DNA of 64,000 nt from Escherichia coli. Lineage in GTDB: Bacteria > Pseudomonadota > Gammaproteobacteria > Enterobacterales > Enterobacteriaceae. Location: NCBI RefSeq assembly GCF_003790525.1, contig NZ_CP033635.1, one strand, 5' to 3'. Position numbers and translations under genes: made by a program. Shown piece after piece: positions 5,010 through 49,755 of this stretch; the first letter of the stretch is position 1, and each line of letters opens with the position of its first letter. A model generated the notes under the pieces. It was not told the origin of the DNA and searched no databases. It saw nothing but the letters and a program-made list of their open reading frames with translations.

Positions 5010-7475
<2,466 letters not shown>

Positions 7476-7488
7476 GTTCGCTAAAAAA

Positions 7489-7520
7489 CAGAACGGGGCC
7501 AAAAGGTCCCGTTTTTTTTC
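7489..7520 (+). terminator. rho-independent terminator downstream of glgP
   Basis: Imperfect GC-rich hairpin (acggggcc aaaa ggtcccgt) followed by T8 at 7512-7519. Confidence 0.6.
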
Positions 7521-7591
7521 GCCTTTATTTAGGAAAAGTGTCCAGAGGGGGCGAGGGTTATCGGGGAGTATAATTTCGCCATTCAGCAAGA

Positions 7592-9109
7592 ATGGAAAGA
7601 ATAATGCAAAACGGAAAATGGATTTTGACCTCGCTGGTAATGACTTTTTTTGGCATCCCCATACTGGCGCAATTTTTGGCAGCGGTTGTTGCCATGCTGG
7701 GGGCCGGGCTTGCCGCTATTTTTGATGTTTGCAATTTACTCTTTACGCCAACAATTTATCTTCTACTCAACGTCTTTATGCTGACGCTGGGCGCATTACT
7801 GCTATTTTTCTCTGGGCGAGTGTGGGCGGGCGATAGCGCACCAGAAAACAGAGAAATAGCCGCCTGGCGACAATGTCTTTTTTTAGTTCCCGCTTTATTA
7901 ACCCTGGTTGGCTGGATAATCACGCTACATCTGGCAGATTATCAATTTCGCCAGATGGTTTCAGGTTGGTTGGCAAACCTTATGCTTCCCTGGTTGGGCG
8001 TTTTTACAGTCTCATTCGTCGGTGGTGAGTACTGGTGGATAGTCATTATTCCCGTTGGCGCGCATATCAGTTTTTCACTGGGATACGGCTGGCCGACCAG
8101 ACACCCTTTAACCGGCACCTCCGGTCTACGTTGCCGTAATTTACTTCTGTTCATTCTTCTCTTACTGGGTATTGTCGCTGGTTATCAGGCTTATTTATAT
8201 AAACAGCTTAATCCCGGCGTCGGTGTGCGTGAAAATATTGATACCTGGGCCTGGCGACCCGATAAACTTAATAATCAACTGACGCCACTGCGTGGTAAAC
8301 CACAAATTCAATTTACGCAAAACTGGCCGCGACTCGATGGCGCTACGGCGGCGTACCCCATTTATGCCTCTGCATTTTATGCATTAAGTGTAATACCAGA
8401 GGATTTTCACGTTTGGGATTATCTGGATAACTCTCGTACGCAAGAAGCATATAACAAAATCGTTAAGGGCGATGCTGATATTATTTTCGTGGCGCAACCT
8501 TCCGATGGGCAAAAAAAACGCGCTGAGAAATCGGGCGTCACTTTGCTGTACACGCCATTTGCCCGTGAAGCGTTTGTTTTCATCGTCAATGCGGATAATC
8601 CGGTTAATTCCCTGACTGAACAACAAGTGCGTGACATTTTTAGTGGCGCAATTACCAACTGGCGCACGGTTGGCGGTAACGATCAGGAGATCCAGACCTG
8701 GCAACGCCCGGAAGACTCTGGCAGCCAGACAGTGATGCAATCGCAGGTCATGAAAAATGTCCGCATGATCTCGCCGCAGGAAACCGAAGTGGCAAGCATG
8801 ATGGAGGGAATGATTAAAGTCGTTGCCGAATACCGTAATACAAACAACGCAATAGGCTACACCTTCCGCTATTACGCAACACAAATGAATGCCGATAAAA
8901 ATATAAAACTGCTAGCGATTAACGGTATTGCACCGACTGCGGAAAATATTCGTAACGGCAAATATCCGTATATCATCGATGCCTTTATGGTAACGCGGGA
9001 AAATACTACGTCAGAAACACAAAAACTGGTCGAATGGTTTTTAACGCCGCAGGGACAGAGTCTGGTGGAAGATGTGGGCTATGTGCCGCTGTATCCAACA
9101 ATGAAATAA
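7592..9109 (+). CDS. membrane-anchored PstS-like (phosphate-binding-protein fold) protein: N-terminal polytopic TM domain plus C-terminal PBP domain
   Basis: 505-aa ORF (a second ATG at 7604 has a better-spaced GGAAAG RBS). Residues 1-210 carry about 5-6 hydrophobic helices; the C-terminal 270 aa show PstS-like motifs (AAYPIYASAFY, RPEDSGSQTVM, AIGYTFRYYA) that align with E. coli PstS (FPAPVYAKWA, DGSGTSFVFTSY, AIGYVEYAYA). Possible -10 TATAAT at 7568-7573. Confidence 0.7.
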   Translation: MERIMQNGKWILTSLVMTFFGIPILAQFLAAVVAMLGAGLAAIFDVCNLLFTPTIYLLLNVFMLTLGALLLFFSGRVWAGDSAPENREIAAWRQCLFLVPALLTLVGWIITLHLADYQFRQMVSGWLANLMLPWLGVFTVSFVGGEYWWIVIIPVGAHISFSLGYGWPTRHPLTGTSGLRCRNLLLFILLLLGIVAGYQAYLYKQLNPGVGVRENIDTWAWRPDKLNNQLTPLRGKPQIQFTQNWPRLDGATAAYPIYASAFYALSVIPEDFHVWDYLDNSRTQEAYNKIVKGDADIIFVAQPSDGQKKRAEKSGVTLLYTPFAREAFVFIVNADNPVNSLTEQQVRDIFSGAITNWRTVGGNDQEIQTWQRPEDSGSQTVMQSQVMKNVRMISPQETEVASMMEGMIKVVAEYRNTNNAIGYTFRYYATQMNADKNIKLLAINGIAPTAENIRNGKYPYIIDAFMVTRENTTSETQKLVEWFLTPQGQSLVEDVGYVPLYPTMK

Positions 9110-9134
9110 CGCTCGAGAGAAAGGAATCAGCGCA

Positions 9135-10127
9135 ATGAATAAATTCACCGGTGTTTTACTATTAGGTACGGCGCTACTGGCGGGATGTGTCGACCGGGAA
9201 GGGTACTATAACAGCGTCAGGGAAGAAGACAGCCATGGACTGACGTCTCTGCGGGGGCAACCTGAATTACGTTACAACGATGATTGGTCAAGATGGCCGA
9301 GAGTGTACGGCGCTACAGCCTTATACCCGCTGTATGCCTCCGCGTATTATGAATTAGTACCCGAGCCAAAAGATAAGGATCGAACCTCGCTGGCCTGGCA
9401 GGCGTATGGTTTGCAACAAACCCGAACAGCTGAAGCCTACGATAGTCTGATTAAGGGTACCGCGACGGTTATTTTTGTTGCACAACCGTCGGAAGGACAG
9501 AAAAAACGTGCAGAAGAAGCAGGTGTTAAACTCAAATATACCGCTTTCGCCCGCGAAGCCTTTGTCTTTATCGTTGATATCAAAAACCCGGTTAATTCAC
9601 TTAGCGAACAGCAGGTCAAAGACATTTTTAGCGGTAAAGTGAGTCGCTGGAATAAAGTGGGCGGCGGTGACGAAAGTATAAAAGTCTGGCAGCGGCCAGA
9701 AGATTCTGGAAGCCAAACGGTTATGAAGGGACTGGTTATGCAAGATACTCCAATGCTGCCAGCCAAAAAATCCACTGTTATCGATCTTATGGGCGGTTTA
9801 ATTACCGAAGTCGCCGACTACCAAAATACACCATCTTCTATTGGATACACCTTCCACTATTACGTCACACGTATGAATGACAATATGCTCAAAATGCGCA
9901 AACAGATCAAACTGCTGGCTATAAATGGCGTTGCACCTACAGAGGAAAATATCCGTAACGGCACTTATCCGTACATAATTCATGCTTATATGGTGACGCA
10001 CGAAAACCCTACGCTGGAAACGCAGAAATTCGTCGACTGGTTTTTAAGCCCGCAGGGACAGCAATTGGTAGAGGATGTGGGCTATGTGCCGATTTATGAC
10101 GCATCATCCGAATCATCAGGACAATAA
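9135..10127 (+). CDS. PstS-like substrate-binding lipoprotein, tandem paralog of the upstream gene
   Basis: 330-aa ORF; lipoprotein signal MNKFTGVLLLGTALLAGC (lipobox LAGC); mature part colinear with and clearly similar to the C-terminal domain of ORF 7592-9109 (ALYPLYASAYY, RPEDSGSQTVM, SIGYTFHYYV). Confidence 0.7.
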   Translation: MNKFTGVLLLGTALLAGCVDREGYYNSVREEDSHGLTSLRGQPELRYNDDWSRWPRVYGATALYPLYASAYYELVPEPKDKDRTSLAWQAYGLQQTRTAEAYDSLIKGTATVIFVAQPSEGQKKRAEEAGVKLKYTAFAREAFVFIVDIKNPVNSLSEQQVKDIFSGKVSRWNKVGGGDESIKVWQRPEDSGSQTVMKGLVMQDTPMLPAKKSTVIDLMGGLITEVADYQNTPSSIGYTFHYYVTRMNDNMLKMRKQIKLLAINGVAPTEENIRNGTYPYIIHAYMVTHENPTLETQKFVDWFLSPQGQQLVEDVGYVPIYDASSESSGQ

Positions 10128-10129
10128 AG

Positions 10130-10730
10130 ATGAATAAAATCAGACTTTATATTCCTCCGTTAATTCTTGGTTTTGTTATTGTGCCGTTGTTGGTGTGGCC
10201 GACGGTGGTTGCTCTGGCTGCTTGTGTTATCACGCTGAGTTTTATGGGAGAAATACTGTTCTCTATCCCGCTCATGTTCAGGCGTATTTCACTTCTGGAA
10301 TTCCAACTTGGGTTATTGGCTGAATATGCACTTTTTTTTTCTGTGCCATGTGTTGCGTTGGTTGGCAATTTTCTTGCAGAGCTCAATCTGAACTGAAAAG
10401 CAGACTCCATTGTTGGTTGGTATTTGCACCAGTTTATTTCTGGTTGCTCCTGTGGAATATCATTTTCTATGTCGCGCCAGCGCAAATTGCTTTGCTGGAA
10501 AATATGCGCAATTTCTTTCTGACCATTGTCTGGTTACCCCTGAATTTTTTCAATTTGGGTCTCAGCCGTGGACTGACTTTATCGGTCCGATAAGCGCCCA
10601 GCTTGGTTTTGCATTGGGATATTATTGCCAGTGGCGTAGCAAAAATAGAAGTCAGAGGAAGAAGTGGGGCGAGTGGGTAATGTGTCTGAGTTTTGTTACG
10701 TTGGGTATGATTGCGTGGGCTTTGCGGTAA
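10130..10730 (+). pseudogene. small integral membrane protein gene split over three reading frames (likely frameshift-inactivated), translationally coupled to the upstream PstS-like gene
   Basis: Three overlapping hydrophobic ORFs in three different frames (10130-10396, 10348-10593, 10410-10730). A T9 homopolymer at 10332-10340 sits exactly where restoring one T would join frame 1 to frame 2; a second one-base shift is needed before 10593 (a T6 run lies at 10545-10550). ATG 10130 is 2 nt after the upstream stop. Confidence 0.45.
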
Positions 10731-10855
10731 TTCCTTGAATCAAAAAGTAGGTCAGATTGTTGACGAAGTGCGCTTTGTTTATGCCGGATGCTGCGTGAAC
10801 GCCTTATTTTGTCTACAAAATCATGCAAATTCAATATATTGCATAAACCACGTAG

Positions 10856-10880
10856 GCCTGATAAGCGTAGCGCATCAGGC
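10856..10880. repeat. REP (repetitive extragenic palindrome) element, followed by a T7 run
   Basis: gcctgataagcgtagcgcatcaggc is a typical enterobacterial REP palindrome; T-run at 10883-10889 could terminate plus-strand transcripts. Confidence 0.5.
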
Positions 10881-10897
10881 AGTTTTTTTGTTTATCA

Positions 10898-10921
10898 TCA
10901 GTCTCAGGTCAGATTGAAATC
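10898..10921 (-). terminator. perfect inverted repeat downstream of glpD (candidate glpD terminator hairpin)
   Basis: ggtcagat tgaa atctgacc, 24 nt beyond the glpD stop; no strong U-tract on the glpD strand, so function is uncertain. Confidence 0.35.
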
Positions 10922-10944
10922 TGACCTGGCCACCTTACGTTAAT

Positions 10945-12450
10945 TTACGACGCCAGCGACAACTTCTGCTGCGTATACTCCACCAGCCACTGACTCACAC
11001 GAGATTGTTGATCCGCATTTAGCCACATGCCTTGTTTTGTGCGACGCCACAGGGCATCGTCGGCGCGACGGACCCATTCGTGATCCACCAGGTATTTCAG
11101 TTCCGCTTCGTAGAACTCATGACCGAAATCCTCCCCGAGGTCGCTTATCGCCCCCGCATTGCCGAGCAGCAGTTCGCTGTTGCTGCCGTAAGTGCGCGCG
11201 TAGTGACGTGCCAGCGATTCAGTCAGGAACGGGTAACGGCGGCGCAGGCGAGCGGCATAATCGTCGCGATCGCCTTCAATGGCACCACCCGGCAGCACGC
11301 TCTCTTTCGTCCACGCCGGGCCAATACCCTGATAATACGGCGTTAGTTTTTCCAGCGCATGTTCCGCCAGTTTGCGGTAGGTGGTCAGCTTACCGCCGAA
11401 TACCGACAGCAGCGGTGCTTTGCCGTTTTCGTCATGGATATCAAGGGTGTAATCACGGGTAATTGCCTGCGGCGAGTCGGACTCATCATCACACAGCGGA
11501 CGCACGCCGGAGTAAGTCCAGACGATATCGTCACGGCTTAGCTGCTTTTTAAAGTGCGTGTTATACACTTTCAGCAGGTAATTGATTTCACTCTCTTCAA
11601 TCTTCACGGCTTTCGGATCACCTTTGTATTCCACATCGGTGGTGCCGATGATGGAAAACTCGTCCATCCACGGGATCACGAACACAATACGTTTATCTTC
11701 GTTTTGCAGAATGTAGGCTTGCTTCTGGGTATGCACGCGTGGCACCACAATATGGCTGCCTTTGATCAGGCGAATGCCATAAGGTGAAGGCAGATGCATC
11801 CCGTCGTCGAAAAATTGTTTCACCCACGGGCCGGTGGCGTTCACCAGGCCGCGCGCCTGCCAGGTGTATTTTTTGCCGGTATCGATATCTTCTGCTTCCA
11901 CAATCCACAGGCCGTTTTCGCGGCGAGCAGAAGTGGCACGAGTACGAGTAAGCACTTCACCGCCTTTACGTACCACCATCTGGGCGTTGGCGAGTACCAG
12001 ACGGGCGTCGTCTACCCAACAGTCAGAATATTCGAATCCGCGCTTAATTTCCGGTTTTAACACTGAGTTTGCGCCAAAACGCAAACCGGTTGATCCCGGC
12101 AGGCTGGTGCGTTTACCCAGATGATCGTACATAAACAGACCAATGCGAATCATCCACGCCGGGCGCAGATGCGGACGATGTGGCAGGCGAAAACGCATCG
12201 GGAAGGCGATATGCGGAGCCATTTTCAGCAACACTTCACGTTCAGCCAGCGCCTCGCTGACCAGGCGGAATTCATAGTGCTCAAGGTAGCGCAGGCCACC
12301 GTGAATGAGTTTTGAACTGGCGGAAGAGGTCGCGCAAGCGAGATCCTGCGCCTCCAGCATCAGCACGGATAAACCGCGTCCAGCGGCGTCTGCCGCGATA
12401 CCAGCACCATTGATGCCGCCACCTATCACAATCAGATCTTTGATTTCCAT
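10945..12450 (-). CDS. glpD: aerobic glycerol-3-phosphate dehydrogenase (501 aa)
   Basis: Track ORF extends to 12465; start trimmed to the Met of MEIKDLIVIGGGINGAGIAADAAGRG (FAD-binding GxGxxG). Confidence 0.95.
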   Translation of the reverse strand: MEIKDLIVIGGGINGAGIAADAAGRGLSVLMLEAQDLACATSSASSKLIHGGLRYLEHYEFRLVSEALAEREVLLKMAPHIAFPMRFRLPHRPHLRPAWMIRIGLFMYDHLGKRTSLPGSTGLRFGANSVLKPEIKRGFEYSDCWVDDARLVLANAQMVVRKGGEVLTRTRATSARRENGLWIVEAEDIDTGKKYTWQARGLVNATGPWVKQFFDDGMHLPSPYGIRLIKGSHIVVPRVHTQKQAYILQNEDKRIVFVIPWMDEFSIIGTTDVEYKGDPKAVKIEESEINYLLKVYNTHFKKQLSRDDIVWTYSGVRPLCDDESDSPQAITRDYTLDIHDENGKAPLLSVFGGKLTTYRKLAEHALEKLTPYYQGIGPAWTKESVLPGGAIEGDRDDYAARLRRRYPFLTESLARHYARTYGSNSELLLGNAGAISDLGEDFGHEFYEAELKYLVDHEWVRRADDALWRRTKQGMWLNADQQSRVSQWLVEYTQQKLSLAS

Positions 12451-12561
12451 GCTGCCCTCATTCACTTTCGTTAAAGTTCATAAATGTTCGTTATCGAACA
12501 TATTAGCAAAGAATCGCGCTTTGGGTAACATTGAAAAAACATTTTAGAGTGATATGTATAA

Positions 12562-44479: not shown

Positions 44480-44504
44480 GCCTGGTAAGCGCAGCGCATC
44501 AGGC
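44480..44504. repeat. REP element between yhgE and hslO
   Basis: gcctggtaagcgcagcgcatcaggc; a second hairpin (ccggcagag ccc tctctgccgg) lies at 44521-44542. Confidence 0.5.
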
Positions 44505-49653: not shown

Positions 49654-49755
49654 CTGTGCGGCTCCTGCAATATATTGATTTTTCTAGATGTTGCCAGACG
49701 GGTAAAGTGTTCACGCCGTATCCGGTATAAACAAAGTGCACTTTGTCAGCAAACA

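Follow-up and report, generated by a model that had tools for sequence, protein, structure and literature searches.

The closest described relatives of the element analysed here are the BIME-1 units, also called RIB (reiterative IHF BIME) or RIP (repetitive IHF-binding palindromic) elements. A BIME-1 is defined by a Y and a Z1 REP arranged around a long L linker, in which an IHF site is often present (PMC3333891; PMC1187871). Such units are found at the 3′ ends of convergent units, and their presence or absence varies between strains (PMC3333891; PMC1187871). REPs located between convergent genes have been proposed to serve as bidirectional terminators or as blocks to decay (bioRxiv 10.64898/2026.03.23.713779), and stable stem-loops without a U-tract can define Rho-dependent transcript ends by blocking exonucleases (PMC6061677). 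BIME-1 units also resemble REPINs, which are mobilised by RAYT/TnpA-REP proteins (IS200/IS605-like Y1 transposases), in that an inverted REP doublet acts as a unit. The TnpA-REP protein of E. coli cleaves BIMEs in vitro (PMC3333891). Transposition of the IS200/IS605 type produces no large target duplication (PMC2817692), and REPs have been stated in a review to be without the signatures of MITEs (PMC3184786).

We examined one such element downstream of glpD in a stretch of Escherichia coli DNA of 64,000 nucleotides (hereafter the window), in which positions 7300-11100 match E. coli SMS-3-5 (NC_010498.1) at 100% identity. A first-pass annotation had labelled two REPs in this interval, and the label is correct in that both belong to the known REP/BIME family. 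Judged by sequence, positions 10753-10906 are one BIME-1 (RIB/RIP) of ~153 bp, and the REPs are not separate elements. The flagged element is of an ordinary, already known kind. When all observations are considered jointly, it is very probable that the site holds a BIME-1 unit which was inserted into the glpD terminator with duplication of the terminator hairpin, and that the neighbouring palindrome serves as a 3′ stem-loop. The features on which this reading rests are collected in Table 1.

Table 1. Features of the glgP-glpD interval, in window coordinates
Feature	Position	Strand	Sequence or basis
glgP	5028-7475	+	RefSeq annotation
Two PstS-family genes	7592-9109, 9135-10127		RefSeq; both match Pfam PBP_like_2
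Frameshifted hypothetical membrane gene, last of the PstS-like operon	end 10730; stop codon 10728-10730	+	RefSeq
3′ end of the last gene, PstS-like operon	10693-10730	+	left type-A/type-B switch at ~10693
Ancestral glpD terminator U-tract	10738-10748	-	AATCAAAAAGT; on the glpD strand ACUUUUUGAUU
Remnant AGGT of the left 22-nt hairpin copy	10749-10752	.	alignment with outgroups
Left outer arm of BIME-1	10753-10781	+	CAGATTGTTGACGAAGTGCGCTTTGTTTA; imperfect inverted repeat of the right arm
Y-type REP, decayed	10782-10816	+	TGCCGGATGCTGCGTGAACGCCTTATTTTGTCTAC; family consensus and orthologue comparison
L linker	10817-10851	+	IHF-like site ATTCAATATATTG at 10829-10841; exact 20-mer TGCAAATTCAATATATTGCA
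Z1-type REP with GTAG head	10852-10880	+	GTAGGCCTGATAAGCGTAGCGCATCAGGC; palindromic core 10856-10880
Right outer arm of BIME-1	10881-10906	+	AGTTTTTTTGTTTATCATCAGTCTCA; T7 at 10883-10889
Palindrome	10905-10928	.	CAGGTCAGATT-GA-AATCTGACCTG; 10906-10927 is the right, intact hairpin copy
glpD stop codon	10945-10947	-	right switch point between type A (BIME) and type B (REP-free)
glpD	10945-12465	-	RefSeq

The organisation of the element is that of the described family. Its Y REP, L linker, and Z1 REP occur in this order, with the two REPs in opposite orientation and an IHF-like site in the linker, and they form a single extragenic unit of 153-154 bp (~150 bp in the family as described). Nothing essential sets it apart from BIME-1. 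The differences are that the Y unit of SMS-3-5 is decayed and that the right arm has T7 rather than the family consensus TTTTGCGTTTG, a lineage variant that is also present in E. albertii. The Z1 REP has the GTAG head, lies between two stop codons, folds with -12.9 kcal/mol, and is invariant across six Escherichia orthologues and the same in most paralogues. The Y REP agrees with TGCCGGATGCGGCGTGAACGCCTTATCCGGCCTAC in its position and in its 5′ half. It carries five substitutions relative to the family consensus, and four fall within CTTATCCGGCCTAC (here CTTATTTTGTCTAC); its 3′ stem half is destroyed in SMS-3-5, leaving no REP hairpin fold. The K-12, E. albertii, and E. whittamii orthologues all retain an intact Y REP. 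The IHF-like site has one mismatch to WATCAANNNNTTR, and the linker is probably bound by IHF.

Comparison with other copies supports the same assignment. The left arm is kept in dozens of unrelated copies and in the paralogue at fepA-entD, which is 87% identical over 10751-10905. A scan for the exact linker pattern found 86 stretches in other genomes, and most matches in Escherichia and Pseudocitrobacter share both arms; full-length copies at other loci measure 152-154 bp. Neither the REP core nor the linker was matched by chance in shuffled sequences (0 matches). The RefSeq annotation has no feature at the BIME-1 position, and in the MG1655 record neither glpD-yzgL nor fepA-entD has a listed repeat feature. 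Elsewhere in the window, there is another REP-like core at 44480-44504 (GCCTGGTAAGCGCAGCGCATCAGGC, two mismatches) and a weak linker-like match at 49666-49685 (three mismatches). We also observed that positions 10852-10960, which span the Z1 REP through the glpD stop, are identical to the E. albertii sequence (L102 3740-3850), including T7 and GGCCACC; several of these positions differ in K-12, E. marmotae, and E. whittamii. This identity between SMS-3-5 and E. albertii could reflect ancestral polymorphism or introgression.

All four features flagged in the first-pass annotation exist, but two coordinate sets and one description needed correction. The full REP core (GCCTGATAAGCGTAGCGCATCAGGC) lies exactly where it was claimed, followed by AG and then by T7. 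The partial REP is present, but it does not begin and end at about 10775-10800 (Table 1). Likewise, the palindrome exists and is perfect, but it does not lie at 10898-10921 and its arrangement is 11-2-11 rather than 8-4-8. When folded, it forms 10-11 pairs with a 4-nt loop, and it is separated from the glpD stop codon by 17 nt. The 11-bp direct repeat AGGTCAGATTG is real, with one copy at 10749-10759 as reported and the second at 10906-10916 rather than 10897. Among 1000 first-order Markov simulations of region 10650-11000, an exact direct repeat of at least 11 nt arose in 1.2%, and a perfect hairpin with arms of at least 11 nt arose in 0.2%. Across the window, AGGTCAGATTG with no more than one mismatch occurs 4 times, as compared with 0.85 expected.

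The arrangement of the repeat and the palindrome becomes understandable when other Escherichia lineages are considered. In E. albertii and E. marmotae the sequence runs AAAAGT-AGGTTAGATTGAAATTTGACCT-CAGATTGTTGAC...CAGTCTC-AGGTCAGATTGAAATCTGACCT, with the 22-nt hairpin on both sides of the element and one full hairpin copy still directly adjoining the U-tract. The two E. albertii copies (L102 3619-3640 and 3794-3815) are identical at 20 of 22 nt. Exactly 18 nt of the left copy are missing in E. coli, E. whittamii, Escherichia sp. E1V33, and MOD1-EC7003, and the deletion is bounded by T(C/T)AGATTG in the hairpin arm and by T plus CAGATTG at the junction between hairpin and element. What remains in the window is AGGT; joined to the element's first 7 nt, it makes up the left copy of the 11-bp repeat, and the second copy of that repeat is carried in the left arm of the palindrome. 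Collapsing the repeat yields a stem-loop followed by ACUUUUUGAUU, which is a conventional terminator with a folding energy of -12.6 kcal/mol. The features of an intrinsic terminator are complete in this reconstructed pre-insertion sequence only, and the U-tract is now 157 bp from the terminator stem.

These comparisons point to the following history. In an ancestor of Escherichia, a BIME-1 was inserted beside the stem-loop of the glpD intrinsic terminator, parting the stem-loop from its U-tract. The whole target hairpin AGGTCAGATTGAAATCTGACCT (22 nt) was duplicated in the process, with one copy placed on each side of the element, as happened at most other BIME-1 sites. The right copy was kept and is represented today by the perfect palindrome, and the left copy lost 18 nt by slippage between two TCAGATTG repeats in E. 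coli, E. whittamii, Escherichia sp. E1V33, and MOD1-EC7003. Because the 18-nt loss leaves AGG plus the element's own TCAGATTG, the 11-bp direct repeat brackets the element. It was the duplication of hairpins at other BIME-1 loci, described below, that led to the prediction of a lost left copy at glpD, and the outgroups confirmed it. By this history, the REPs entered a terminator long ago and are not a recombination scar.

Several details of this site deserve mention. With respect to the direction of glpD transcription, the BIME-1 is located upstream of the hairpin; elsewhere, many loci have a T-run after the right-hand hairpin copy instead. The 5′ arm of the hairpin holds TCAGATTG, 8 nt that also result when the junction T is joined to the element terminus, CAGATTG. 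We regard the sharing of this sequence by target hairpin and element end as an unexplained coincidence, roughly 1 in 10^4. A general role for CAGATT as a target motif was considered and discarded, given that only one of the other BIME-1 right flanks scanned (L009) has CAGATT, which is about what chance would provide. We also rejected two other origins of the palindrome, namely truncation of a tandem element and template switching within the quasi-palindromic element; the tandem-dimer idea was dropped because the outgroup sequences make the simpler history of hairpin duplication sufficient. The palindrome, which is the right-hand copy, has been wholly lost in E. whittamii. A scan of metagenome contigs with AAAAGTNGGYYAGATTKAAATCTGRCCTG for the type-A empty site gave 0 matches. 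In E. coli isolate 648 (ST648; NZ_OW967966.1, L095 360-425), which is otherwise identical to the window, a 34-bp tandem duplication spans the right end of the element and the palindrome, with CATCAGTCTCAGGTCAGATTGAAATCTGACCTGG present twice.

Hairpin duplication is not confined to glpD. The sequences just outside the two BIME-1 arms are often direct repeats, and what is repeated is the hairpin of an intrinsic terminator, 17-29 nt long. Our survey of flanks covered about 30 loci among L008-L093, and also L084 7600-7960, L096 300-430, L097 300-790, L098/L099, and L100/L101. An exact flank match of at least 9 nt was found for 12 of 32 units, as compared with 0.5% of cross-locus controls. When mismatches were allowed, flank duplication exceeded the 99th percentile of the cross-locus controls at 18 of 30 distinct loci. 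In sequence, the element is CAGATTG...CAGTCTCA, placed after the hairpin and one to three T. Furthermore, natural empty sites are segregating in E. coli at three loci, each with a single hairpin. At yccJ-agp and lpdA-yacH, the empty site has one hairpin and the occupied site has a hairpin on both sides. At yqjF-yqjG, the empty site likewise has one hairpin, and occupied sites have one unit with two hairpins (Escherichia sp. E1V33) or two units with three hairpins (E. coli N96). The argG-side locus of E. whittamii (L064) has no orthologous left flank in E. coli and so provides no pair of empty and occupied sites.

Arrays of these units were also observed. Tandem arrays of hairpin and element are present at yqjF-yqjG in N96 (L097), where the order is hairpin-element-hairpin-element-hairpin, and in L087. 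In L071, L074, and L075 there are BIME arrays of several copies, with 2-5 linker matches at each locus. The sequences of the tandem arrays suggest amplification after insertion.

Some of the properties listed above are reminiscent of MITEs, such as the Correia element with its IHF site. Like these elements, BIME-1 units are short and non-coding, sit between direct copies of the target, and have an IHF site (predicted here). Inverted repeats, duplication, and pairs of empty and occupied sites at three loci other than glpD were all found. The terminal inverted repeats (CAGATTGTTGACAAA versus the reverse complement of the right end, GAGACTGATGACAAA) are imperfect, with 12 of 15 positions matching by eye. 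Unlike the duplications made by MITEs, those around BIME-1 (17-29 nt) are not of fixed length but are set by structure, namely the whole terminator hairpin. BIME-1 units are also unlike IS200/IS605 elements in being flanked by hairpin-sized duplications, and therefore the mechanism or the enzyme would have to differ. We tentatively propose, with more doubt than confidence, that BIME-1 units might be structure-targeted mobile elements that insert at the base of a terminator hairpin and duplicate the whole hairpin (17-29 nt, the length being set by the stem-loop), with tandem amplification able to follow. Neither RAYT nor IS200-type transposition would be expected to leave such a mark. We found no description of hairpin duplication around BIME-1 in the searchable literature; papers from the 1990s may report it.

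Regardless of how the element arrived, published data from K-12 indicate what the glpD 3′ region does at present. Term-seq of MG1655 cells grown in LB to an OD of 0.4 places a ‘primary’ glpD 3′ end at 3563562, which is 4 nt past the palindrome stem (Adams et al. 2021, PMC7815308, supplementary file 1), and a second 3′ end on the glpD strand at 3563685, just past the Y REP (PMC7815308). The equivalent window positions are 10901 (minus strand) and 10777. These data come from K-12, which has a palindrome with one mismatch and an intact Y REP, and not from SMS-3-5. On the glpD strand, the palindrome stem has a folding energy of -15.9 kcal/mol (z = -3.4). It is not an intrinsic terminator, in that the stem is present and there is no T-run on either strand. 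In K-12, the glpD mRNA ends, or is trimmed back to, 4 nt past the palindrome, which acts as a protective 3′ stem-loop without a U-tract, and RNAs that read through end after the Y REP. By analogy with K-12, we infer that the palindrome has the same role at the 3′ end in SMS-3-5. The second stop, after the Y REP, is probably weaker in SMS-3-5 because the stem of the Y REP is broken.

A stable stem that lacks a U-tract and lies just upstream of a mapped 3′ end is also what characterises the REPs and stem-loops known to stabilise Rho-dependent transcripts. The difference is that the first protective stem at glpD would be an orphaned terminator stem and not a REP. The published table of Rho scores has no entry for either glpD 3′ end. 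The Z1 REP and the T7 behind it could act as a terminator of the PstS-like operon on the plus strand; their predicted structure comprises a stem of -12.9 kcal/mol, AG, and U7. A simple scan for promoters and terminators made no call there, probably because the stem is imperfect. The same scan reported one weak stem, located inside the decayed Y REP, and did not call the palindrome.

The glpD 3′ end exists as two types in E. coli. Type A, with the BIME and the palindrome, is found in 2369 of 5426 complete genomes, and type B, which is free of REPs, is found in 3017 of the same 5426. The two were compared by setting window positions 10693-10945 against L003 6610-6705, L005, and L094 4135-4229. 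A megablast query with window positions 10650-10800 matched only 879 genomes because of sequence divergence, and this left-junction query was left out of the counting. The type-B end is a hairpin, GCCCGGTTGC-ACTTC-GCAACCGGGC, that constitutes a canonical GC-rich terminator of -21.3 kcal/mol and is unrelated to type A. Because the type-A end is present in all five other Escherichia lineages examined, the operon and the BIME are taken to be ancestral. Among the lineages examined, type B was seen in E. coli alone, and from this distribution the clean-terminator allele appears to be derived or imported.

The genes next to this end also vary. K-12 has lost 2.84 kb by an internal deletion between ~10-nt repeats (GGGCGAGTG; window 7816-7825 and 10657-10666), with endpoints at 7825 and 10666 within the first and last genes. 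The product annotated as yzgL (L002 2225-2506) consists of the first ~234 nt of the 505-aa PstS-like gene and the last ~65 nt of the membrane gene, and by this composition it is a fusion remnant and not a gene in its own right. The last operon gene (window 10130-10730) is a RefSeq pseudogene in SMS-3-5, where it is frameshifted; ECOD1, E. albertii, and E. marmotae have an uninterrupted version of 199-201 aa. Pfam gives no match for this gene, and the only named homologues found are in Escherichia. In APEC O1 (L003 1-4391) and AF39 (L004 2835-7669), a chaperone-usher fimbrial operon replaces the PstS-like genes and sits between glgP and hypothetical genes. The AF39 fimbrial operon is broken up by IS3-family and IS4-family elements.

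It was originally suggested that the REP cluster, bordering a glgP-glpD island, is a hotspot for recombination and insertion and that this may explain why the site varies among strains. There is some basis for such a view, given that, within the E. coli genome, BIME-rich regions are enriched in strain-specific ‘loops’ (PMC1187871) and that the recognised structural hotspots include the glp-glg region (PMC13185298). One class of deletions, AF39-like and represented by 229 of 5426 genomes, does have its right end at 10769 in the left arm of the BIME, and the 34-bp tandem duplication of the single ST648 isolate lies beside the palindrome. The other breakpoints on the glpD side are elsewhere, and for most breakpoints the suggestion does not pass the test set for it in the first-pass annotation. 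When boundaries were compared across strains, the switch points proved to be at 10693 and 10945 and the deletions at 10666 and 10709 (the latter linked to IS1). None of these, nor the K-12 endpoint at 7825, is at a REP; 10666, 10693, and 10709 are inside the last gene and 10945 is in the glpD stop codon. Furthermore, no REP is present at this end in 3017 of the 5426 genomes, and the three type-B genomes examined have three gene contents, namely the fimbrial operon (APEC), PstS with three hypothetical genes (TW11681), and the two PstS genes of the window (ECOD1). As gene content differs among genomes without REPs, it assorts independently of them. The supposed REP-bounded island is an ancestral operon that, like the BIME, is older than the species, with the last gene, BIME, and glpD in the same order in E. 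albertii, E. marmotae, E. whittamii, Escherichia sp. E1V33, and MOD1-EC7003. The notion that this BIME-1 marks or causes the adjacent variable gene block is largely unsupported, and we consider a hotspot explanation of the strain variation improbable.

Two other readings concern the parts of the element. The palindrome and the 11-bp repeat might be independent of the REPs, with the palindrome serving as an ordinary terminator or as an operator for a protein and the repeat being a chance match. A repeat of this length arises by chance in about 1% of simulations of the 351-bp region, which is not vanishingly small, and the palindrome is stable on both strands. However, the outgroups reveal that the repeat is what is left of a 22-nt duplication placed precisely around the element; 18 of 30 loci share this architecture, and the palindrome has no T-run on either strand. 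The palindrome is presumably also unlike the GlpR operator consensus. We therefore give independent origins almost no credence. The linker, over 10817-10859, might instead be a functional small RNA gene with incidental REPs, in keeping with its match to the Rfam family RF02751 (ES036, CssrF), where 43.6 bits exceed the gathering score of 37.6, and with a weak sigma-70-like match at 10812-10840. That promoter evidence does not surpass what shuffled sequence gives (2 matches versus 1.1 expected), and the K-12 table of 3′ ends lists none there on that strand, as both ends in the interval are on the glpD strand. The same Rfam model matches the BIME-1 units at fepA-entD, at yqjF-yqjG, and in other species, and it scores above the gathering threshold on unrelated copies (L006, L025, L031, L055, L065, and L097). 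Because it matches unrelated BIME-1 linkers, the family is a dispersed repeat and not a single sRNA locus, and a small RNA gene at this site seems very improbable. The reading that accommodates these observations remains a BIME-1 unit inserted into the glpD terminator.

The annotation question at this site is settled by one ordinary repeat together with an orphaned glpD terminator stem, rather than by an island boundary. For the type-A allele, which is carried by ~44% of E. coli genomes, there is now a concrete account of how the glpD mRNA may end; the remaining 56% have a clean GC-rich terminator. Types A and B thereby make up a natural two-allele system in which the effects of REP/BIME sequences on 3′ end formation and on glpD expression can be compared. 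If our proposal for structure-targeted insertion is true, then the arrival of a BIME-1 uncouples a terminator stem from its U-tract on one side. If the bracketing of BIME-1 copies by duplicated hairpins is a new observation, it bears on the long-open question of how REPs and BIMEs spread; empty sites still segregate in E. coli.
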